Below, one piece after another: positions 2,193 to 56,148 of a stretch of 64,000 nucleotides of DNA (positions are counted from its first letter, which is position 1; every line of letters begins with the position of its first letter). The notes under the pieces are model-generated. The model was not told where the DNA came from and did no database searches. It saw nothing but the letters and a program-made list of their open reading frames with translations. The DNA comes from a virus, in IMG/VR virus record IMGVR_UViG_3300020183_000015, positions 69,947 to 133,946 of that record. One strand, written 5' to 3'. The position numbers were made by a program, and so were the translations under genes.

Positions 2193-5100
2193 TAATGAAA
2201 ATATTTTAGTAGAGTTTGATTATGATAACATAACGATAATTGACCCAAACAAAGTTGTTGACAATTTGGGAAACGTTAATGAAAGATTAGTTAAACAAGA
2301 AAACTTAGTTTACTACGCTAATTTAGAGTGTAGTGTTTTACCTAGAACAAAATTGGCGGTTGGTAGTTCTTTTGGTGATAACCAAAGAACAATATCCGTT
2401 GGAAAAATTAATTTTTTAAATCCAGGGTTCAAAGACTTTTTGGATACAAGATGGTCCAATGAATTAACAGGAAAAGATACTATACAAGGTAGAGGACAAA
2501 ATCAACCAAGAATTACTGCGGTCAAAGAATCTGATAAGTCACCTGAGTATTACTACACACAAAGAACTTACTCTGATGGAAAACCTGGGGCAACCGACAA
2601 CGGACTTTTAGGTATGAAAGACATCAATATGAGTATGGGTCAAGATTTTCTACCTGTGGTTGAAATAACTTTAGAGGACGTAAAAGGAAGAGCCCTTTTC
2701 GAATCAGGAAATAACTCTCCTTACGCCGCCTTCTTCCAACTACCATACCCTTTATTTACTTTAACAATGAAGGGATATTTTGGAAAGGCGGTAAAGTATC
2801 CTTTGATGTTGAAATCTTTTACTTCGAATTTTGATCCGTCGTCACATAATTTTATTATAAGACTGAAATTCTTTGGTTACAAGTATACTTTATTGTCTGC
2901 TGTTAATTTTGGTTCTTTAACAGCGGTTCCACACATGTATAAAAATTTGGTGACAATACCCGCAAAAATTAACGAAACAAATCAAACTGCGAAAAACACA
3001 AACCAAACTTCATTTCTGAGTAGTAAAGGTTATGAAAAAATGAGGGAAATATATTCAGATTATAAATCAAAAGGAATGATTGCTGAAGATTTTCCTGAAC
3101 TGACATTAAATCAATTGAGATATCGTTTAGATGAATTTATCAAAAAAGTTTTGTCGGAGTTTACAAAAGAAAACTTGGGAGTACTAACAGAAATAAATAA
3201 TTATCTAAATTCGTTGTTGAATTACCAACAAGTTATTTATACGTACACCACAACATCATGGTTCAACCAATTTATGGATGTTAAAGAACCTTTTGTTCTT
3301 ACCAACGGTGAAAAAATGTATCAATTCAAACCAACATTAACACCTGAAAACAAAGACAAATGGTTTTCAGAGTTGACAGGTAGAATACAAAAATATAACA
3401 CACAATTGAATACTAATAGTGTTTTTGGAAAAACTCCTGGAACTTACAGCGTTGGTGGTACAATATACCCAAGTAGAATAGAGTTCTCAATCAAAGACAC
3501 GACTTTTATTAGAAAGATAAATCCCGAAACGGATATTGATTGGGAAAAAACATATAGATTAAAAAACCCAACCCAAAGTGTCTTTGGTAATTTATATCCT
3601 GAAAAAGTAAGAGCATTTAAAACTAGTAAACTTGCCGAAATTGAACTATTGAAAGGTAACTTGTTTTATTTTGAAGGACCTGGTTCTTTCATGTACATTA
3701 CAACCAAAATGGGTAAACAAGTAGAAAGTTTTAAAAGAGAAATAGAAACAAGAATAACAGAAAACCTACGTTCACAATTTAATAATAAACAATATGGTTT
3801 AGGATTTATTCCTACCGTAAGAAATATATTGGCAGTTTTCTTTTGTCAAGGAGAGGCGTTTTTAAGATTGATGGATGAAGTTCACACCAAAGCTTGGGAC
3901 GTAAGACAAGAACCTTATAGAAAACAAGCAATTTTTGGAAACGCATCTACCGCCCCGAGTGTTGATATCAAAACCTCAACACAAAACGATGAACCAATAT
4001 ATCCTTGGCCGCAAGTCATTAGAGAAATCACCGAAGATGATAATAAAGAAAAATTTGAAATTGTTTATCCCGGAGCTCCAGATGTTGCATTTTTATACAG
4101 GTCGTATCTTCCTGAAATTTGGCCTGAAGTACAGTTTGTTGAAGAGTTTATAAAAGGATATACTCACCGTGATGACGACTTCAAAGAGTTGAGCGATAAT
4201 CAAACAAATTTATTAAACAAACCAAGAAGAGTATCTCTTAATTCAATAGATTTCCCAACATCAAATCAAATATTTCAGAACAAACAACAAGTCAAATACA
4301 TGTATGAAATATATGAAAGAGTAATTCTTAACGCATACTACAGCAAATTAAATAGACAAAGTGGATATCCTTTCAGTGTTTACAACGTTGAGGCGGAAAA
4401 TGAAACGTTGAATATTTTAGAAAGTCTAAGTTCCTCAAGTCCATACATGTCAAAAATATTAAAAGAATATAATATAGATCAAACCAACTTTGAAATATTC
4501 TTAAGACACATATCTAACGAAGGACAAGGGGAGAGTTGGCAAGATTTTATTAGAGGAATTTTTGTTACACCATACATTAGAAATGAAGTTGAAAACCCAA
4601 GTAGACTATTCAATCAAGACATTTTAGTCAACACAAAATCACAACCTGATATTGAGTTAACAATTGAAACAAACAAAATAAACATTGAAAAGTATATTGC
4701 CGACTCAAGTGCTAGTAACGTCTTTGACTTTACAGACATTTATCCTTTATTGGATTTAAATTGGGATAAAAGTAATTTGGCGAATGGAGATACATTAAAT
4801 GCTGCTGAAGAGGCTTTTGATACACAAAAAGTTTTGGAATACAATGACAACCAAAAAACTATTGCAAGCTTTGAAGCCGGAGAAGACCAAACAATCAAAA
4901 GACCAATATCTAACTTCAATTATTTCAATTTAACTGACGTACTACAACCTGTTAATTTCTCATTGTTTTATACGTCAAGAACTATTCCAAAACAATTAAC
5001 CACTGAAGGTAACTTAAAGTATACAAACTACAATGGATATTTAGAACCCAATCAAACAATATCAATGTTAAACACACCGTATTTTATAAATGCAATTCAA

Positions 5101-8100
5101 GACGGGGTTTTTAAATTTAGGTTCAGATCGGGAGAAACAAGTCCATATAAGTCTGCCGCGTATTTGTTTTTGGATAGTTTACCATTGGCAACAACTAAAG
5201 AAAAATTTAAGACATATGGAGAAGGTGGGGCTAGTGTTGATTTAAATTATATTTTGGCAACACTAAAAAAGTTTGGGGCAATTCATAAATTACCATACGC
5301 TTGGGTTTTAAAGTATGGTGGTATTTGGCATAGATATAAAACATGGAAAGATACTGGAATTGACTTTTTGGATGATGTATGGAAGGACTTTAATGCGGTT
5401 AGAAACTTTGACCCAATCAATTCGGCAACAACTTACAACTACCCACTTACGGTCGGTAACAATTTATACAATATTGTTTTAGACCAAACAACAAATACCC
5501 CAACACCAAACACAAACATGAACGTTGGGTTTTACCCTCAATTAATTGACGACTTTAATGTATTTTTACAAGGGACAAAATTACTCACAGGGTCAAGTTT
5601 AGTACAAGGTGTTTGTTCAATAAGCGGTTCTGTGATGAATGTATCTACTGTAAGTAGTAATAATTTATTCATTGGTGCAATTATAACTGGTTTGGGTATA
5701 CTACCAAACACAACAATTTTGAGTCAGATAGCAGGAACTACAGGTGGTATAGGTCAATATGTTGTTTCATTATCACAAAGTGCTTCGACCACACCATTTA
5801 CAGTACAAAATTTAATTGTTAATGGACCGAGTTCCGTAGACATACAACAGTTGATAAATGATGATATTTTACTTCTATTTAATAATAGTACCGCAAACAT
5901 AGAAGGATCCATTGGATTTGACCCTAACAATTTGACCAGAACTTTAACACTAAGAACTTGGTCAGTTTTAGTCAAATCACAAAAAACCGATAACTATTTT
6001 GTATTCCCATCATTTGGTTATGATCAGAACCAAACGTATTCTGAATGTTTCAAAAACGGGTCTATGAGAATTGAATTATCACAAAACCCCGCAGTCTTCA
6101 ATGGGTCGGTAAGATTATTTTGGAATGCACCAACTTACGGATATTACAACAACTCTTTTGTCGTTAAAAACAATCCTGACACGTATTTAAAAAACATATT
6201 GAACAACTCGAACACCCAACAAAATTTCTTGATCTCAGGACAAAAAAGTGATTATTCTTATTTGGACGATATGTTTAGCGCTTTTGATAAGAATGTTTTA
6301 GATTTGTTTGAACTTCAATTTCTGAACTTCAGTAAATCAATTTATGATTATACCGACTTGATTCCACCAACATTACAAAATAATTTGGCGGATCTTTCTC
6401 AACCAAACTTACAAAATCTAAGTAGTACTGAAACTCCAAGCGAACAATATTATAAAAACTTCCAAGGGTTGATGAGAGAATTGTTAAAGATAAGAAATCC
6501 AATAAAAACTTCTCCAAAGGAAACACTCAATGATGTAATATCAGCACAAAACCAAGTTTTCCAAACCGTACTAAAAAACTTTTTAGAATACGATGTTGTT
6601 TTTAAATACGGAAACCCTTCAGGATTTGACAGAAAAACATTTTTCACTTTTTCGACTCAATTTATTGAGGAACCTATAGTGTTGGATCAATACATAAAAG
6701 GTAATCTACCTGGTGACGGAACCGTTCCGAACTTATCTTTGGCAAATTCAAAAACACAAAATCCTGATGTTTGGAAAGCTCTTGAAACATATGTAGGTTT
6801 TTCTAAAATACCACAGTTAGAATATACAAATAGTGGGTCTTATATTACTGATTTCTTTATTGATATGAATGTTGGATTTAACGAAAAAAATGTTAAAGAT
6901 TTTGCACCAATTATTAAAATATTTGCCACTCAAAAACTTTTGGACCCAAACATAGATATAACATCTTTTTATTCGGGTATGGATAATTACCTATTGGCAT
7001 CAAAAGAATATCTTAATAATGTCATAAGTGTTTTAATGCCAACAGTCAGAAATACTTTACCAACAGTAATCATCAGTCCACAAGAAGGTTCGGTACGTGC
7101 AGACTTAGAAGCAGGTTTTACAGAACAGACAAGAACTGAATTGTGGGAAATGTTCAAGGCTTTGAACGACACATGGATTTCTGGTTACGACTTTTCGAAC
7201 AAAACATTGTTTGAAGATGTTCTTTTAATGGACAGAGCCTCAAGAGATATTGGAGACAAAATATTAGTAGACATATTTGAGGTTAAAGAATTGATTGAAG
7301 ACGGGGCTTATAAAAACACTCTTTTAGGTATGATAGAAACTATACTTAAGAACAATAATTTTGTAACATACATGTTACCTTCTTATATTAATTTTTATAA
7401 TGTACAGGACGCACAACTTAACCCAACACCGAGATTTGAAGGTACCACTGAATTTGCAAGAAATTTGTTTGGTACATATCTAAATGTGGATTACCGAGAC
7501 AGTTCACCAAAATACGTTTGTGTTTACGCTAACAAACCAAGTGAACATTTGGCGATGAATGAAAATGTTGATTATAGATATAGAGATGACGCTTTTGATC
7601 TAAGAAGGGCTAGTGACAACCCATTAGTTGAGAGTCAAGAAAATAAAACAGATTGGGCCAGATCGAATAAACTTGTTGGGTTTAATGTCGACATGACACT
7701 ACAAAACCAACAAATATTTAAACAATTTGACGTGGCTCAAGATCCTGGAAAACCAACGTCTGAATCATTGGAAGTTTTGAACCAATTGGCCAATCTTTCT
7801 AAAAATAGAAGAAGCTCAACACAAAACGTTTCATTATACAATCTATACAAAAATAGAAGTTACAGATGTTCCGTTGATATGATGGGAAATGCGTTGATAC
7901 AACCAACAATGTATTTTAATGTTAGAAACATACCGATGTTTTCGGGTCCTTACATGATAACAACTGTGAGACATAGAATTAGTGAAAATGGATTTGATAC
8001 ATTCTTCGAAGGAATTAGACAACCTTTTTATTCTTTACCTAAGATAGATAATTTTATACAGTCACTCAATCAAAACATATTGAAAAGTATACAACAAACC

Positions 8101-30860: not shown

Positions 30861-33800
30861 TGGCAAAACAAAAATTTACCTGCCCACCACAAACTGCAAG
30901 CGGACAAGGAACATTTTCTGACAATTTAGTTGGATTACAATTACTTGATGGAGGAGGTTTCACGCAGGCGAATTTTTCATTTACAACATCGATTAGTGAA
31001 AAACAAAATAGGAATTTTGATTTAGGATCGTTTTCAAATCCAATGAACTTGGATTCAATGAAGATTGAAAACCTAATCGAAACACAATCAATACTATCGA
31101 ATAACTTCAAAGTTTATCCAAACTACGACTTAAGTCAAGTAACAAACTTTACTGAATATGGATCGTTAACAAAAAGAATCTCAACATCAGTTACCAAAAT
31201 AATTAACTTCTTTCCTGCTGGTTTAGAAATTCAAAAGATTTCCTCGAAGTTTCTCACACAAACAACCGCCTTTAACTGTGTTTACAATGGACAAGAGAAT
31301 GAAACGACATTCGAAATATATCTTTCATCAATCAGAAACCCATTTGACATTGATTTTAGTCAAAATGCAACAAGAAACATTTTATTAAAAGAAATTGAGG
31401 TATCTCCTTTGAGGGACATGACAGTTAATTTCCAAAAGTATAGTTTGTATATTAATGGTGGTGAATATCCTCTTAATTATATTTACCCAATAACCGATTC
31501 ATCTATAACTTTTACAATTATTGTTGAGGGTAACCCCTTTTCAGGTAATAATATATCTTATGACTATTTGGTAATCAGACCAAACGATTCTCAAGTTAAT
31601 AAAGTTTTCCAAGATAACTTCGATCCCGTTGAAAACTTCTTATTGAATAGAAATGTAAGACCTATCTACACCGCAAACTTTAAAGTTGCAACAATAAATG
31701 ATTCTGGTAATTATACTTACACGAACGAACTAATAACATTTCCACTTTCAGGGGTTTGGAACTTAGATATTTCTTCTCAAAACTTCGAGGTTTATTTAGA
31801 GAAATTAAGTATTTATACGACCAGTTTAGATGAATATAAAACAAACTTATTATCACGATTTTTAACCACAGGTGCTCTAAAAGAATTTGATACACCTGAT
31901 CAAAAGTTTGAAAAAGTTTTACAAATATATGGGAGAAGTTTTGACCAAACTAAAACTTTTATCACAGCATTGTCAAACATGACAAACGTAAATTACGTTG
32001 TTAAAAATGACATACCAAATATATTACTCAAAAATTTGGCAGAAACTTTAGGTTGGAAGATTAACATTTCACCTATTTCAAACGAAGAGTTATTAAGTAG
32101 TGTGTTTTCACCAACAACAAATTTATTTCCCGGACTTTCTAAAGGTCAAACTCCTGAAGAACTCAATTATCAATATTATAGAAATTTGGTAATGAACTCC
32201 GCATACCTATTCAAATCTAAAGGTACAAGAAAATCTATAGAGTGTTTGTTGAGATTGATAGGTGCGCCAGAAATGTTAGTCGAATTCAACGAATATGTTT
32301 ATGTTGCGGATCAAAGAATCAACATGCAAGATTTTCAACAACAATATGTGTTATTGACGGGAGGTACACTCACACAACAAATTCCAGTTCTTCAGTCAAA
32401 CAATGTGTTTTCGATTTTGGGAAATAGTGTAACAGGATTCACAACAACAACCGTAACCGTTCCTGTAACAACTGAAAGACAAGACTACCCTGTTGATTTG
32501 ATTGGTTGTCCACAAATGCCGGAAGTTTCTCAAAATTATTTCTTCCAAATTGGAGGAGGTTGGTTTGAGTCAACACCACAACACAGAATGCCCGAAGAAG
32601 TAAACATTACACAAAGTGTGTTTACAGGTAACAACCCAACATATCAAACCAAACTATTACCTTTTAACTACGGTCAGTTTTATTTAGACAGATACAGATA
32701 TTTCCCATACATGAGTTTGGGTTATAACCTAAGAAAAGTTGCGGACAACAAGAAAAGTTGGGCGGATTTCCAACCTGATCTAAGAAACGTATCTGATGCT
32801 AACATGAATGCTTATTACCGTACTGACGAAGAGTGTTTAGTATTGAATGTCAAAAACGTTGATATTTTTATGAATCCTTCTCAAGGGTTGGTCTACGATG
32901 TATGGCACATGTCAAGACAATATAACTTTCCAATACCAGAACAAGGTTTAAATTACGTAGAACCAAGTCCTTGTAATATACCAAACCCCTATCCCAAAAT
33001 AGGAGGTGTGGATTGGACAGTTATTCAACCAAAACCAAAACAAAAAAGTTTCTTTGAATTTGCCCAAACTTTTTGGCACAACATGATCAATGTAAGAAAC
33101 AGACAATTCATAACAGATGGTAAAACAGGCGGTTACCCAACCTTATCATCAATATATTGGAACTACTTGGAGTCACAACAATTAATAGGAGTTCAGAACG
33201 GTAACTTCAATTACCAAACAATGATCGACTATGTTAATGGATTAGGAACTTATTGGGTAAGATTAATTGAACAAATGATACCCGCCACAACAATTTGGAC
33301 AACTGGTGTGAGATTAGAAAATTCAATTTTTCATAGACAAAAATTTGGATGGAGAAGACAAACAGTTTGTAAAATTTTACCACCGGCTTGTAAACCTTGT
33401 GGTATTACAACACAAGTTTTTGTACACGATTGTCCAGGATTATACATTCAATGTGGACTTTACCCGTGGACATCCAATCCTACAATACCTTCTTTTGGTT
33501 CATTATTATCTTATCTATTGAATCAGTACTACATAGACAATGGAATAAACCCTGCAGATTGTTTGGATTTAACAATACAAAGTCAGTGGTACATAGATAT
33601 AAGAATTAATGGGGTTGTTATAAGTCAAGATCAATTCTTCAGTGGTTCAGGTCCTGTTGGAGTTCCGACAAACTCCGATTGGATTGATGCTTTAGAATTG
33701 GGATTAGGTAATTTACAAAGTTCTGGATATAGTTATGTTATTAATGAAAACGAAGAGGAATTCTTTGTGTTCAACAATAATTGTGTTCCGATAAACGAAG

Positions 33801-50525: not shown

Positions 50526-52901
50526 ATGGATTTATTCAATCCACCAAAAATATTTAACTACGAAATTATGATAAAAGATTTGGACTTTTCTTCATACGAA
50601 AACCCAATTATACAAGTTGTTTGGGAAGATTTGCCAGAAAACTTTACACAAGACAAAATAAAAAGTGTTAAACATTACTTTTCAAAAAAGTATAACACAA
50701 CTAACGTAAATGTTTTAACTAAAGCAAAACAAACCCAAACTGAAGAAATGCAATCAATTGATGTTTCAGTAAACATTAGTGATGTAAACTATCAGTTGGA
50801 CTTGTTAAAAAACTTCATTGAATCAAAAGGAAACAAAGATAAGACTGATGATATTTTGTCAATCAACAGAATGGTTGAAAACAAAATGAATGGTGATGAG
50901 GAAAACCAATCTCTTTTTAATAAGTGGTATATTAGAAACATCGAGTTCTCGAACTTTTTATCATACGGTGAAAATCAAAAATTAGATTTTGATAAATTAA
51001 ATGGTATTGTAGTGGTAGAGTCAGATCCACCAAACTTCGGTGGTAAAACCGTACTAACGGTAGATCTTTTAATGTTCTTGTTCTTTAACGAAACAACAAA
51101 GACAACAAAGGTGGAAGAAATATTCAACAGGTTTTCGAACAAAGACAAAGTTCATGTTAAAGGTGAAATCACAATTGACGGTGAAGAATATGTTATTGTT
51201 AGAAACATTGAAAGAAAAATGTCTAAAAAAGGGGAATGGAATGTTAAAACTGAACTAGACTTCTTTAAAAAACTATCTGACGGAACATTATTAAACTTTA
51301 CGGGAGAACAACGAAGAGAAACTGAAGCGTTTATCAAAACTTCAATTGGGACCAAAGAAGACTTTTTAATGACCATTCTAACAACAGGGTCAAACCTTGA
51401 AGAGTTGTTGGAGTCAAAACCAACGGCCCGTGGTCAGGTTCTATCAAGATTTATGGGTCTTGAGTTTTTGAAAAAGAAAGAGGAGGTTGCTAAAGAAATC
51501 TACGGTGAATTTTCAAAACAAAAGTTGTCAAACATATATTCATCTGAACAATTAAAAGATGATATTACTACTCACGAAGAGTCAATTCAAACACTTACAA
51601 CTCAAATTGAGGAAAGTCAAAAAGAATTAACAAATGTTGAGGACGCAATTACGAAAGGTAAAAACTATCGTGATGACATGTTAAAAAAGAAACATACAAA
51701 TATTGATCAAGAAATTAGTAGATTAAACCCAACCAACACTCAAGAAGAAATCAACACGATTGATTTTGAAAAGAAGGGTTACATTTCTAAAATCAACGAA
51801 CTTAAAGTTGTTGAACCAAGTGAGTTTTACCATGAGGACAAACACGATGAGGTTAAAGAACAATATAATGAGGTCTACAAAGAGATCGTTCAGATTGATA
51901 CAAAGATTTCATCAATCAACAAATTAAAGTCTCAAGTAGAAGGTGGAATCAAGTGTGAACACTGTGGTATTGAGTTAATGAACGCAGCAATCACAAACGC
52001 AAAGATTGCGGAGTTAGATGGATTAATCGTGCAAAAAACCACAAAAACGACACTTATGCAGGATTTATCCGACAAAGAACAAAGTTTTGTTAAATTGAAA
52101 AAAGAATTTGACGAGTACGAAAAGAACAAATTGGTTAAGGAAAAATACGAGGTATCAGTTGAAAGTTGTGATTTGAAGATAAGTGTGTTGAAAGACAAAC
52201 TTAAAAGGTGGGAAGAAATTCAAGACAAGATCCAAGAAAACCAAAAGATTGACGGACAACTAATTAAGGCCGATTTGAGACTTGAGGAACTCGAGAGAGA
52301 AAAAACAAGAATTAATACTGTAATTTCAGGAAACAAAGTTTCAATTACTTTGTTAAATGAAAAGATCGATAATAACAAAAAAATGATTGTCAAAATAAAA
52401 GACGAAGAGGAGAAGGAAAAATTTTATAAGATATACTTGGAGGCTTATGGTAAAAATGGGGTTTCTAAAATTATAATGAAAACAATGATGCCACTAATCA
52501 ACTCAGAACTACAAAGACTGATGGAAGATTCTTGCTACTTCAAACTTGAAATCAGGATTAATGATAAGAATGAGGTTGAGTTCATTATGATAGATAATAG
52601 TACTGGTATTGAAAAACTTATGACAAGTGGGTCAGGTTATGAAAAGACTATTGCTTCACTAGCATTAAGATCGGTATTAACGAAGATATGTACTTTACCA
52701 AAACCAAACCTTGTCGTAATGGATGAGGTGTTTGGTAAGATCTCAAATGAAAATTTAGAAATGGTGTCTGAATTTTTCATCAAGATTAAAGAATACTTTG
52801 AAAAAGTTTTTGTAATTTCGCATAACCCTTTAATTAACAATTGGGCGGACAACATACTTAAAATAAAAAAAGAAAACAATGTATCAAAAATAAATTTATG
52901 A
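50526..52901 (+). CDS. Rad50/SbcC/gp46-like ATPase with N-terminal extension
   Basis: FSNFLSYG, NFGGKT, coiled coils, zinc hook CEHC, SGYEK, VMDEVFG, ISH. Confidence 0.9.
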   Translation: MDLFNPPKIFNYEIMIKDLDFSSYENPIIQVVWEDLPENFTQDKIKSVKHYFSKKYNTTNVNVLTKAKQTQTEEMQSIDVSVNISDVNYQLDLLKNFIESKGNKDKTDDILSINRMVENKMNGDEENQSLFNKWYIRNIEFSNFLSYGENQKLDFDKLNGIVVVESDPPNFGGKTVLTVDLLMFLFFNETTKTTKVEEIFNRFSNKDKVHVKGEITIDGEEYVIVRNIERKMSKKGEWNVKTELDFFKKLSDGTLLNFTGEQRRETEAFIKTSIGTKEDFLMTILTTGSNLEELLESKPTARGQVLSRFMGLEFLKKKEEVAKEIYGEFSKQKLSNIYSSEQLKDDITTHEESIQTLTTQIEESQKELTNVEDAITKGKNYRDDMLKKKHTNIDQEISRLNPTNTQEEINTIDFEKKGYISKINELKVVEPSEFYHEDKHDEVKEQYNEVYKEIVQIDTKISSINKLKSQVEGGIKCEHCGIELMNAAITNAKIAELDGLIVQKTTKTTLMQDLSDKEQSFVKLKKEFDEYEKNKLVKEKYEVSVESCDLKISVLKDKLKRWEEIQDKIQENQKIDGQLIKADLRLEELEREKTRINTVISGNKVSITLLNEKIDNNKKMIVKIKDEEEKEKFYKIYLEAYGKNGVSKIIMKTMMPLINSELQRLMEDSCYFKLEIRINDKNEVEFIMIDNSTGIEKLMTSGSGYEKTIASLALRSVLTKICTLPKPNLVVMDEVFGKISNENLEMVSEFFIKIKEYFEKVFVISHNPLINNWADNILKIKKENNVSKINL

Positions 52902-53430: not shown

Positions 53431-53964
53431 ATGAATTACTTACTTTTTGTCTATTACGACAGTACAGTTGAAAACTCAGAAACATCCACAAATGAAATTG
53501 CAAGTAGAATTGCAGAACAAATGACATCTAAAGAAGCGAAGTTTATGTTCGGAGATAAACACGCGATATTTCACTTTGCGTCAGACATTTCAATCGAAGA
53601 AATGTCAGGGTGGGTTGATATTATCAACTACGAGTTAGATTGTTTTCAGTATTTTTTAATTCAAAAACCAAGAAGTTCTGCATCAAATATGCCAAAAGAC
53701 AACTTAGATCATTTATTATCGTTAAAGAAAACCAAACCAACAAAACTAAAACCATTAGAACCAAAGATAAATTGGGATTTCAAACCAACAAAAGATAATG
53801 GTGAAAGTTTTATGGACATCGTAGACATAGTCATAAACTCAAAAAGACCAAAAGTTTGTAACATGACTTTGGACGAGTTACTTGACAAAATCAGCTTAGA
53901 GGGAATGGAGTCTTTGACTCAGATTGAAAAACAAAAACTGGAAGAATATTCAAAATCAATATAA
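53431..53964 (+). CDS. Hypothetical protein with C-terminal DUF6576-like helix pair
   Basis: LDELLDKISLEGMESLTQIEKQKL. Confidence 0.6.
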   Translation: MNYLLFVYYDSTVENSETSTNEIASRIAEQMTSKEAKFMFGDKHAIFHFASDISIEEMSGWVDIINYELDCFQYFLIQKPRSSASNMPKDNLDHLLSLKKTKPTKLKPLEPKINWDFKPTKDNGESFMDIVDIVINSKRPKVCNMTLDELLDKISLEGMESLTQIEKQKLEEYSKSI

Positions 53965-53974
53965 TTAATAATAC

Positions 53975-54775
53975 ATGAAAGACAAAACACTAGGACCTCA
54001 CATCAATCAAGATGAAATACAATATTATCTTAAAGATATTAGAAAAATTAAAGTAATGACTCCTGAAAGGGAGAAAGAGTTAGCTAAACTAATGAAGTCG
54101 AATGAAACATCCACTTATCAAAGACAAAAAGTCGAAGAAGAACTATTAACGGGGAATCTACGATTTGTAATCACGGTTGCAAAACAATATCAGAATCAAG
54201 GATTAGACTTATCGGATTTGATTGCTGAAGGTAATTTAGGTCTTATGAAAGCGATCAAAAATTTTGATTGGAATAAAGATCTTAGATTTATATCTTACGC
54301 AGTCTGGTGGGTAAAGCAATCAATAATCCAATCTCTAAATGACAATTCACGAACAATTCGTCTTCCCGTCAATGTAGTCCAAGATTTACAGAAAGCAAAG
54401 AAAGAAGTTGAACAAACAGGAAAAAAACTTGAGGACAAGTTCGCATCTTTACCATCAATGATTGATTTAGACATGAACATCAATGAAGATGGTGATACTC
54501 TTATAGATATGATTATCAATAGAGATGCTGACGCTCCTGACGCAGTTTTTGACACAAAAGATTTGTTAAAAGAAAAATTGATTTCTTTGTTAGGTGTTCT
54601 TGATGACCGAGAAAAAATTATTGTGGAAGATTATTTTGGTTTGACTGGCACACCAAGAACCTTAGAAGACATTGGATCTGATTTTGGTTTAACCAAAGAA
54701 CGTGTACGTCAGATTAAAGAAAAAGCCCTACGTCGATTAAGAAATGACTGTAGTGAATTGTTTGACTATCTATAA
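53975..54775 (+). CDS. RNA polymerase sigma70-family factor (RpoD/RpoS type, no region 1.1)
   Basis: YLKDI, NLRFVITVAKQY, DLIAEGNLGLMKA, RFISYAVWW, RTIRLP, TLEDIG...TKERVRQI. Confidence 0.95.
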   Translation: MKDKTLGPHINQDEIQYYLKDIRKIKVMTPEREKELAKLMKSNETSTYQRQKVEEELLTGNLRFVITVAKQYQNQGLDLSDLIAEGNLGLMKAIKNFDWNKDLRFISYAVWWVKQSIIQSLNDNSRTIRLPVNVVQDLQKAKKEVEQTGKKLEDKFASLPSMIDLDMNINEDGDTLIDMIINRDADAPDAVFDTKDLLKEKLISLLGVLDDREKIIVEDYFGLTGTPRTLEDIGSDFGLTKERVRQIKEKALRRLRNDCSELFDYL

Positions 54776-54776
54776 A

Positions 54777-54877
54777 AAGGGTTGAACCGAGATTACCCTT
54801 ACAACTCGGCAGAAGGTGCCTGAAGTCACCAGGGTGAAACCCCCCAATCCTATCTATATGGTAGGATGAAACCACAC
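54777..54877 (+). ncRNA. Candidate structured RNA (H-type pseudoknot + three hairpins)
   Basis: GC-rich island. AAGGGT/ACCCTT is crossed by CCGAG/CTCGG; further stems GGTG/CACC, GGGT/ACCC and ATCCTATC/GGTAGGAT. Confidence 0.5.
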
Positions 54878-54878
54878 T

Positions 54879-54904
54879 CCCCCACTGGTACCGGTGGGGG
54901 TTTT
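54879..54904 (+). terminator. Rho-independent terminator
   Basis: CCCCCACTG-GTAC-CGGTGGGGG followed by TTTT. Confidence 0.8.
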
Positions 54905-54969
54905 ATTGTTTTATAGGGTTTATATTTGGTATCAAATCAGTTATTTTGATATTTATCTAATAAACAAGT

Positions 54970-56148
54970 TTGATGAATAAAAAATTTTTACCTTGGTTTT
55001 TATTGTTTTGTGCAATAGGACTTTCGGGAACCGCAGCCTATTACAGTGTTATAGGATTATCAATTATTTTCTCGGCAGTTGCCATTCCTGTTATTATTAT
55101 GGGTTCTTTTTTAGAGATCTCAAAAATAGCAATCGCAACCTATCTCCACGATAAATGGAAAGAAACATATGGAATATTAAAGATATATTTGACCATAGCA
55201 TTAGTAACTTTATCTGTTTTAACATCGGTTGGAATTTATGGACTACTCTCGACAGGGTTTCAAAAAAACATTGCCGGTTTGGAGATCAATAACAAGAAAA
55301 TAGAAAATATCGAAGTTAAAAAAACAAGATTTGAAGAAATCAAAGGCGATTATCAAAAAGAAAAAACAACCCTCGATAAAGACATAACAAGTCTTAGAAC
55401 CGCACTTTCAACTAACACTACCACACAAACAGTAGATAGAACAACAGGTCAAGTCATAACAAGAGCAAACGGTGGTAATCGAAAGGCATTTGAGACACAA
55501 TTAAAAGTTGCTCAGACAAATAGAGATACTTTATCTAAAAAAATTGAAGGACTTAATGACAGTATCACAAAGTTGGATTTAGAGATACTTGATCTAACTT
55601 CAAAGGAAATAGAATCTAGTGAGTTGGGTGCTATCAAATACCTTAGCGAAATTACAGGTTGGGATGTTAAAAAAACCGCAAACTTTTTCATTTTAACTTT
55701 GATTTTTGTTTTCGATCCACTAGCAATTGCTTTGGTGATATCAACCAATCAGGCCTTCAAAAATTATAGAAGAAAAGAAGAGGAAGAGATTTTTATCGAA
55801 CATGATGAGGTTGAAGTACCAGAAGGGTTATTGAGTTATGGAACTAGTGAGACAAACATTCCTGTGGAAACAGAACCGATAGTGAAATATGTAGAAGTTC
55901 CAATTGAAGTTGAAAAAATCGTTGAGGTCCCTGTTGAGGTAATCAAAGAAGTTGTTGTTGAAAAGGAAGTGATCAAAGAGGTGCCAGTTGATAGAATGGT
56001 TGAGGTAATAAGAGAAGTTCCAATAATGAAAGAGGTTGAAAAAAAATTATACATAAAAGAAAATGGTGAGATTTATGATGAAAATGGTGAATATTTTGGA
56101 TCTCAGGAACCCACACTATCAAAAAAAATATTAAAATACACTAAATAA
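54970..56148 (+). CDS. Multi-TM coiled-coil membrane protein with VEK/VPV repeats
   Basis: Three N-terminal TM helices, a long coiled coil, TM LIFVFDPLAIALV and a repeat tail. Likely start is ATG 54973. Confidence 0.7.
   Translation: MMNKKFLPWFLLFCAIGLSGTAAYYSVIGLSIIFSAVAIPVIIMGSFLEISKIAIATYLHDKWKETYGILKIYLTIALVTLSVLTSVGIYGLLSTGFQKNIAGLEINNKKIENIEVKKTRFEEIKGDYQKEKTTLDKDITSLRTALSTNTTTQTVDRTTGQVITRANGGNRKAFETQLKVAQTNRDTLSKKIEGLNDSITKLDLEILDLTSKEIESSELGAIKYLSEITGWDVKKTANFFILTLIFVFDPLAIALVISTNQAFKNYRRKEEEEIFIEHDEVEVPEGLLSYGTSETNIPVETEPIVKYVEVPIEVEKIVEVPVEVIKEVVVEKEVIKEVPVDRMVEVIREVPIMKEVEKKLYIKENGEIYDENGEYFGSQEPTLSKKILKYTK

Follow-up and report, generated by a model that had tools for sequence, protein, structure and literature searches.

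The locus and its RNA element

Here we describe a structured RNA that is encoded immediately downstream of a sigma-70-like gene in the IMG/VR virus record IMGVR_UViG_3300020183_000015. The stretch analyzed, hereafter referred to as the window, comprises 64,000 nucleotides (positions 69,947 to 133,946) and forms the 3' 64 kb of this 134-kb record, which has an estimated completeness of 46%; the GC content is about 32%. Two nucleotides past the stop codon of the sigma gene a GC-rich island begins that holds a structured core and an intrinsic terminator (Table 1). The RNA belongs to a structured family that is conserved in many freshwater Bacteroidota phages and has no counterpart among the described RNA families; it constitutes a separate gene and not a device of the sigma gene. 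It may act in trans by binding a protein, possibly the product of a small gene with which it is arranged tail-to-tail in a number of its relatives.

The island was initially proposed as a pseudoknotted RNA candidate on the basis of its letters alone (the sequence-only reading). The GC enrichment reported then is borne out by a value of 0.50 for 54777-54877; in segments of 120 nt the GC content is 0.44-0.46 over the island and mostly 0.24-0.39 within the surrounding 3 kb. Folding of the + strand beats that of shuffled sequences (z -2.89, equaled by none of 200 shuffles) and that of the - strand is unremarkable (z -1.40, equaled by 20 of 200). The covariance model for the family, R1, recognizes positions 54777-54877 with 112.7 bits (E 6e-24) as the sole real copy in the window; a second match at 33316-33420 (E 0.91) was judged to be due to chance. 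Each of the complementary segments named in the sequence-only reading is found where it had been placed, that is AAGGGT and ACCCTT of hairpin P1, CCGAG and CTCGG of the first pseudoknot, GGTG and CACC of P2, the 8-bp stem of P4 (ATCCTATC with GGTAGGAT) and the terminator.

Table 1. Positions of the RNA element, its parts and the flanking genes in the window (ORF, open reading frame)
Feature	Position	Strand	Description
Entire RNA element	54777-54904	+	Structured core 54777-54878, terminator, first part of T run
P1 hairpin	54777-54800	+	AAGGGU 54777-82 / ACCCUU 54795-800; U54783 faces U54794, non-standard pair
Pseudoknot 1 (candidate)	54787-54809	+	CCGAG 54787-91 in P1 loop / CUCGG 54805-09
Pseudoknot 2 (candidate, found here)	54810-54822	+	C54810 A54811 G54812 / C54820 U54821 G54822 in P2 loop
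P2 hairpin	54815-54830	+	GGUG 54815-18 / CACC 54827-30; 8-nt loop
P3 hairpin	54832-54844	+	GGG 54832-34 / CCC 54842-44; 7-nt loop UGAAACC
P4 hairpin	54847-54867	+	AUCCUAUC 54847-54 / GGUAGGAU 54860-67; loop UAUAU
Intrinsic terminator	54879-54910	+	9-bp G+C-rich stem 54879-54900, then TTTTATTGTT
Sigma-70-like gene	53975-54775	+	ORF; Pfam Sigma70_r2 7e-17, r4 3e-15, r1_2 2e-6
Downstream gene for a 392-aa membrane/coiled-coil protein	54970-56148	+	ORF; no Pfam match

Occurrence in phages and bacteria

Relatives were collected from several sources. The collections overlap, and all counts refer to loci (labeled by L numbers where needed) and not to genomes. A search with the exact pattern of the 5' core retrieved 93 IMG/VR loci, and a looser core pattern found at least 117 loci in JGI/ENA metagenomes; 18 of the 96 distinct sequences among the latter are, as judged by eye, GC-rich chance matches in coding DNA. 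A further sample of 80 loci was anchored on the sigma gene and drawn from 361 IMG/VR relatives of the sigma protein. Here, model R1 finds the RNA in 45 loci, 34 of the 80 carrying it directly after the sigma stop codon, and detects none in the other 35. Nor does R1 find the RNA in any of three related genomes, which have sizes of 274-296 kb and a completeness of 93-100%. The RNA is an accessory element that is variably present among close relatives. A sequence in L297 (1501-1573, G156; 18 bits with R1) shares GUUGAACCGAGA but lacks CUCGG and is either a chance match or a remnant. Among named phage records, blastn returned no match to the element and only two short matches within the sigma gene. 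A full-text search for four core strings, combined with a topic search, yielded no paper on the element; supplementary motif lists lay outside the scope of this search.

In bacteria, a search of 185,579 species genomes found the exact core once, in a metagenome-assembled genome of the Crocinitomicaceae, where it lies on a contig of 5.7 kb (L178 3022-3122, G001:C363). The contig looks chromosomal, and the copy lies between genes for a hydrolase with a type IX secretion system tail and a ComM-like protein. This copy has retained the first three hairpins, P1 to P3, and both pseudoknots, but neither P4 nor the terminator. Downstream on the strand of the RNA lie two orphan ORFs of 256 and 243 aa, which form a sporadic island with it. 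When 151 genomes of the family and 151 of the order were searched with R1, under strict filters that may lose weak matches, the RNA was detected in a single genome that is part of either set, and the first of the two ORFs is present in one of 401 family genomes. The ORFs lack Pfam matches, gave only a chance-level PADLOC match and no usable Atlas result, and have only five homologous clusters. In view of this single bacterial occurrence, the idea that phages copied a general host RNA was rejected; the contig gives a hint at the host group.

Conserved structure of the RNA

That the element exceeds chance follows from its conservation and covariation in relatives and not from the single sequence in the window. 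Both had been named among the checks in the sequence-only reading, and both were found. The core was aligned for 111 distinct copies taken from IMG/VR phage contigs, JGI metagenomes and the one bacterial contig, and an alignment that includes the terminator comprises 59 sequences. In the former, 92.4% of the cells are paired as compared with 84.3% in shuffles, and the covariation score is 0.290 as compared with 0.146, neither value being reached by any of 500 shuffles; sliding the partners by 1-3 columns reduces the score to 0.05-0.08. The corresponding figures for the 59 sequences are 86.9% versus 79.5% paired and 0.276 versus 0.147 for covariation, and again none of 500 shuffles reaches either. 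G-U pairs are frequent on the + strand and would become A-C mismatches on the other strand, which identifies the + strand as the RNA.

P2, P4 and the terminator are supported by covariation, and P1, P3 and pseudoknot 2 contain one covarying pair each. Changes on both sides occur in four of the five pairs of P2 (e.g. GC 60/AU 46 and GC 59/UA 35/AU 6), in five of the eight pairs of P4 (e.g. CG 44/UA 42/UG 14 and UA 54/CG 35/AU 9/GC 3) and, in the 59-sequence alignment, in seven of the nine pairs of the terminator stem. The three G-C pairs of P1 are present in 111, 111 and 110 of the 111 sequences, and its second pair is AU in 50, UA in 45 and other in 16; variants include one G-U pair (L238) and C/A, A/A or C/U at the position of the facing uridines. 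For P3, the sequence-only reading had drawn a hairpin GGGT-GAA-ACCC. Judged from the family, this hairpin is better read as a 3-bp stem that closes a loop of seven nucleotides. The outer pair of this stem is AU in 63, GU in 30 and GC in 17 sequences, and both inner G-C pairs are invariant or nearly so. The P3 loop, which looks T-loop-like, has the sequence UGAAANN in the sigma-linked lineage, whereas a longer loop takes its place in other lineages. Conserved single-stranded elements are (C/U)GA in the P2 loop, beside the strand of pseudoknot 2, and UGAAAC after P4, which extends from U54867, also the closing base of the stem, to C54872.

The 5' core of about 32 nt, with its candidate H-type pseudoknot, is almost invariant even across lineages whose hairpins have diverged and whose terminators differ in sequence. 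The complementarity of CCGAG and CUCGG, already noted in the sequence-only reading, was found in all 111 sequences as a perfect 5-bp complement with zero variation, which was forced in part by the search pattern, and the duplex has an energy of -6.1 kcal/mol. The loops UGAA, AUU and (UU)ACAA are likewise nearly invariant. The helix never varies and hence yields no covariation; it is a plausible candidate pairing. When the ten bases of pseudoknot 1 were left free, the pattern recovered the 93 known IMG/VR loci and only three more, all of them unrelated. Moreover, the exact core is present in 43 of the 45 copies of the sigma-anchored sample, which had not been selected by RNA sequence; the other two contain one A-to-U change in loop 1. 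This sole core variant seen, GUUGUACC in place of GUUGAACC, occurs in L068 and L070 (4645-4746), where the remaining RNA is intact and the convergent protein described below is present.

A second pseudoknot was suggested by mutual information: the sequence C-R-G directly after CUCGG would pair with C/A-Y-G in the loop of P2. Among the 111 sequences, its middle pair is GC in 70, AU in 30, GU in 9 and other in 2, the C-G pair forms in 109 and the third pair in 43 only. The signal partly tracks a split into two sequence classes, but the mixed cases fit pairing: class-A stems can have G-U, one class-B stem has A-U, and a change of U to C goes along with G-C. The second pseudoknot is a likely candidate pairing. 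If both pseudoknots were formed, the strand CUCGGCRG would line one continuous stack.

Rfam 15, searched with the whole window at gathering scores, contains no matching family, so that the search proposed in the sequence-only reading gave no name to the element. With E values up to 10, the region 54600-55100 gave only sub-threshold matches to NsiR1 (18.5 versus 39 bits) and rimP (16.5 versus 47 bits), both on or across the terminator, and to snoU19 (15.2 versus 45 bits) downstream at 54943-55048. Six divergent members and L007 were likewise without an Rfam match on the element, and ARAGORN detected no tRNA or tmRNA in the window or in five related loci.

Independence from the sigma gene

In the 93 IMG/VR loci the RNA is usually located between the sigma gene and the gene for the membrane protein. 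The arrangement in the window bears the possibility that the element acts in cis in the 3' untranslated region of the sigma mRNA, where it would stabilize the message, block exonucleases or tune sigma expression. The window copy starts 2 nt past the stop codon, shares the sole terminator and has no promoter-like box of its own; the RNA here is therefore probably the 3' end of the sigma transcript, and the 34 sigma-anchored loci with the same direct succession fit this picture. In many loci, however, extra genes part the RNA from sigma, leaving gaps of 390-2900 nt, or lie between the RNA and the membrane gene, and 10 of the 93 loci, which stem from other phage lineages, have neither of the two genes nearby. 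In 23 of 90 loci, a distance of 11-23 nt separates P1 from the end of an upstream TAnnTTTG box, which we take to be the Bacteroidetes-type -7 promoter box, and 17 of these 23 have TTG or TTTG at -33. Conversely, the 35 sigma loci and the three near-complete genomes mentioned above lack the element, some having a plain terminator after sigma. A function bound to the sigma mRNA is thus very unlikely, and the suggestion of a sigma-regulating RNA made in the sequence-only reading is not supported. Its other proposal, a small RNA that had escaped recognition, agrees with the conserved and covarying helices, the intrinsic terminator, the promoter-like boxes of relatives and the lack of an Rfam match.

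A compact fold with several pseudoknots and an invariant core could also belong to a self-cleaving ribozyme whose activity would release either the RNA or the sigma mRNA 3' end out of a longer transcript. Self-cleaving ribozymes are common in phage DNA, and co-transcription with sigma would demand processing at the 5' end. Copies with their own promoter would need no such cleavage, however, no Rfam ribozyme model matched even at E values up to 10, and the order P1a-S2a-P1b-S2b does not, by inspection, fit the layouts of hepatitis delta virus-like, twister, pistol and hatchet ribozymes. We regard this explanation as highly improbable. None of the present results favors the ribozyme or the nuclease-blocking element that the sequence-only reading had also proposed. 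Likewise, the succession of a structured domain, an intrinsic terminator and a gene on the same strand in the window resembles a riboswitch or attenuator acting on the downstream gene via termination. This explanation fails because the next gene lies on the other strand in 35 of the 93 loci. In addition, the downstream gene varies by lineage, inspection by eye revealed no conserved alternative pairing of the core with the terminator arms, and the terminator sequence is not conserved between lineages whereas the core is. Such control is extremely improbable.

Expression was assessed from Logan assembled contigs of four runs, two of them probably DNA; contigs of this type show no ends, strand or level. 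Contigs from the two metatranscriptome runs span 54774-54872 and 54778-54884 with a depth of 2.4-2.7, and the flanks are mostly bare except for a generic match to sigma region 4. This coverage is a weak hint at expression of the element, and the small shares obtained give no indication of habitat.

As to the surroundings, the gap between the sigma and membrane-protein genes is an insertion hot spot (L010-L013, L037, L054-L057, L063-L067, L116). Its cargo, as judged by eye from N-terminal sequences, includes a zinc-ribbon-like ORF, Dcm-like C5 methyltransferase genes, a GIY-YIG-like ORF and a 155-aa ORF. In the window, the ORF upstream of sigma (53431-53964) has a C-terminal match to DUF6576 (E 1.7e-11), and a 791-aa ORF (50526-52901) shows a weak match to the SbcC/Rad50 Walker B motif.

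The convergent neighbor protein

In 35 of the 93 IMG/VR loci the RNA is arranged tail-to-tail with an ORF of 127-155 aa whose stop codon lies within about 30 nt of the RNA terminator; six loci are too short downstream to judge. The ORFs belong to one protein family, and the 35 loci include nine of the ten without sigma. All loci examined taken together contain 99 occurrences of the protein. This RNA is present within 250 nt in convergent orientation in 83 of them, on the 5' side of the protein gene (divergent) together with a short hairpin RNA on the 3' side in six, and separated by one intervening ORF in two. In the remaining eight, a different conserved promoter-driven RNA, termed 'type 2', takes the same place. 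An RNA of this kind thus accompanied every occurrence of the protein, and a protein-anchored scan for one subfamily found the RNA in all eight informative loci out of ten. The ORF lists of the examined loci contain no conserved ORF beside the protein gene that would be suited as a protein antitoxin.

The 'type 2' RNA was observed in L005 (~3840-3965) and L054 (~5500-5648) as well as in L008, L055, L056, L059, L063 and L064, tail-to-tail with divergent members of the same protein family and with no terminator before the stop codon of the protein gene. Copies without the protein are found in L007, L009, L134 and L174. From 5' to 3' it contains AGUAGAAGUG, a hairpin with compensatory changes, GAUAGGA and ACGAUUNAGAUAC, and it has no Rfam match.

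The layout raises the question of an antisense regulator similar to those of type I toxin-antitoxin pairs. The RNA itself or its read-through product would then form base pairs either with the convergent mRNA, at its 3' end, or with other transcripts. Tail-to-tail genes with an RNA terminator so close to the protein stop, and a 'type 2' RNA that runs on without a terminator, would suit such a mechanism. A plain antisense RNA, on the other hand, needs neither a heavily covarying structure nor an invariant folded core, orphan copies are conserved without any overlapping gene, and the protein looks soluble and is not a small hydrophobic peptide. We consider antisense regulation improbable.

The protein family comprises 189 clusters of hypothetical proteins. 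An AlphaFold2 model with a pLDDT (predicted local distance difference test) value of 81.5 has a mixed alpha/beta fold. The 50 top rows of an exhaustive VIA search included about 20 that are, by their entry titles, small ribonuclease (RNase) toxins with Z 3.1-5.7, among them RelE, ParE, BrnT, HigB, YafQ, YoeB, colicin E5/D, T4 RegB and CdiA-CT. The best match was CdiA-CT (5e3e_B, Z 5.7); RelE, ParE, BrnT, RegB and colicin E5/D scored 3.1-4.9. One of 27 members matched DUF4258 (E 0.0011), a family not listed in a separate scan of five members, and the nearest named cluster in the Atlas is PBECR3 (0.77). The part of PMC11980606 used here names DUF4258 among the BECR-fold toxin families. Taken together, the predicted structure and these matches consistently but weakly suggest a RelE/BECR-like RNase.

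Possible function of the RNA

A gene for an RNase-like protein that never occurs without a structured RNA gene, an RNA that often occurs alone and the lack of a protein antitoxin together form the signature of an antitoxin or immunity factor. We therefore put forward, with a probability of about 0.4, that the structured RNA of about 125 nt encoded in the window acts in trans by binding protein. As an RNA antitoxin or 'immunity' RNA it would neutralize a small RelE/BECR-like RNase, the gene for which is arranged tail-to-tail with that of the RNA in roughly one third of the relatives and has no protein antitoxin beside it. The window copy would then be an orphan immunity RNA, kept as protection against RNases of the same family from co-infecting phages or the host.

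Several points weigh against this proposal. The protein family has no Pfam match above cut-off (weak rows for Toxin_R_bind_C, E 0.011, GHL6 and others are at chance level), no match in PHROG or PADLOC and no PDB-sequence match of value; Foldseek with the AlphaFold2 model returned nothing at E 0.001 or better (best E 0.12), and the VIA scores, all under 6, are below the confidence line of the tool. Pseudoknot 1 is without covariation support, and the signal for pseudoknot 2 follows in part the two sequence classes. Most RNA copies have no such protein gene nearby, including 135 loci with at least 750 nt of downstream sequence, and the gene was not found in the record of the window, which is only 46% complete. 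Furthermore, most loci that entered the count of co-occurrence had been selected for holding the RNA, so that only the finding that the protein never occurs without an RNA carries weight, and the basis of this finding is the sigma-anchored set together with a single protein subfamily. The adjacency could partly be a coincidence, since the gap between the sigma and membrane genes is a hot spot for insertions, and a common terminator may be all that links the convergent genes.

The leading alternative is that the RNA serves as a decoy or aptamer directed at the host, the core of which would act in trans on a host protein, for example a defense nuclease, or on a small molecule, with the neighboring gene being separate cargo of the hot spot. 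The RNA is under clear constraint in the at least 135 loci without the protein, its core is invariant across lineages with diverged hairpins, it is present or absent among close relatives, and the single bacterial copy resides in a sporadic two-ORF island. Precedent exists in a phage RNA that mimics a host antitoxin RNA ('pseudo-ToxI'), as described in the part of PMC3475682 consulted. Independence of RNA and protein would, however, leave the constant pairing of the protein family with this or an analogous RNA unexplained; no host partner is known, and the bacterial ORFs have no recognizable function. We consider the decoy unlikely.

Returning to the RNA as a neutralizing partner of the RNase-like family, a more far-reaching version would have the two form a new type of toxin-antitoxin or immunity pair, in which a single-copy RNA with two pseudoknots counters a BECR-fold RNase of the RelE type that has no protein antitoxin. 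Orphan copies would be 'immunity RNAs' with which jumbo phages survive such RNases when rival phages or abortive-infection systems of the host bring them into play, and the 'type 2' RNA would represent a second specificity class. In this extended form the proposal is doubtful.

Further structured RNAs were noticed in the collected loci. A third promoter-driven RNA with its own terminator, found in L007 (~4040-4185), contains GUCGGGUUUAAAUUCC..GAAUCGGACC followed by GGGUGAG/CUCACCC; a similar piece lies just upstream of the main RNA in L138 and L143, and neither ARAGORN (tRNA) nor Rfam reported a match. Terminator hairpins in L247, L082 and L090 have in their loops a recurrent motif, GUCAGAAUAC (or UUAGAAUAC), which also occurs twice in a short promoter-driven RNA (L151 ~2175-2250, L286, L006 3801-3870). 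It is not enriched in the window, where one match compares with 0.64 expected.

To our knowledge, few structured non-coding RNAs of phages have been described, and almost none of them are from large freshwater Bacteroidota phages. The RNA reported here is abundant, with more than 100 distinct copies in public data, and has a core of a kind that is usually confined to riboswitch aptamers, ribozymes and tight RNA-protein interfaces. If it neutralizes an RNase of the RelE type, the largest toxin superfamily would be added to those countered by RNA antitoxins, and orphan 'immunity RNAs' would be seen for the first time in conflicts among phages or between phage and host. Even if the proposal of an RNase partner fails, the family is well defined and suited to structure probing, to searches for ligands or partners and to an Rfam entry.

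Comparison with known RNA and toxin systems

The preQ1-I and SAM-II/V riboswitches are compact H-type pseudoknot aptamers with A-rich third loops. The core described here has a similar short first stem, a loop that would pair downstream, an A-rich connector (ACAA) and near-invariant loop bases. It differs in that it gives no sequence or covariance-model match to these riboswitches, has no regulated downstream gene and forms part of a stand-alone RNA with three extra hairpins and a second pseudoknot. From terminator-type riboswitches it is set apart by the frequent opposite orientation of the next gene (35/93) and by the lack, as judged by eye, of a conserved antiterminator pairing. T-loop hairpins occur in tRNA and in FMN, cobalamin and TPP riboswitches. 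P3 is similar in its short G-C-closed stem and its 7-nt loop UGAAANN (compare GGUGAAAUUCC of FMN and cobalamin elements). The likeness concerns the module only, as ARAGORN reported no tRNA and Rfam no FMN, cobalamin or TPP element, and the loop is longer in other lineages.

Among toxin-antitoxin systems, type I is dissimilar: its toxins are small hydrophobic peptides, while the neighbor protein has 127-155 aa and a mixed alpha/beta model. RelE/ParE toxins of the BECR fold (PMC11980606, in part) and the phage PBECR domains (PMC5512222, in part) come closer with regard to the predicted fold, the one weak DUF4258 match and the setting in phages and biological conflict. Known members are, however, accompanied by protein antitoxins or embedded in large polyvalent proteins, whereas here no protein partner is conserved and a structured RNA is the constant neighbor.

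The closest parallel is provided by type III toxin-antitoxin systems, whose antitoxins are the RNAs ToxI, CptI and TenpI (PMC5086642 and PMC8860590, each in part). As in these systems, an RNA with (here candidate) pseudoknots is encoded beside a small RNase-like gene and no protein antitoxin is present, and as with the pseudo-ToxI of a phage, phage-borne copies of the RNA occur without a toxin. The differences are considerable. ToxI consists of tandem repeats of 34-36 nt, whereas the RNA described here appears in the alignments as a single unit of about 100 nt that is free of repeats and has two candidate pseudoknots in addition to three hairpins. In type III systems RNA and toxin follow each other on the same strand with a terminator between them; here the orientation is convergent in 83 of 99 cases and divergent in six, and same-strand ORFs downstream of the RNA are found only at the single bacterial copy. 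Finally, the neighbor protein seems RelE/BECR-like rather than ToxN/AbiQ-like; among the families listed in Pfam and PADLOC it had no match, and the fold search gave RelE/ParE-like chains at Z 3.1-5.7. By analogy, the RNA may work like the RNA antitoxins of type III systems, but it is not a member of this group.

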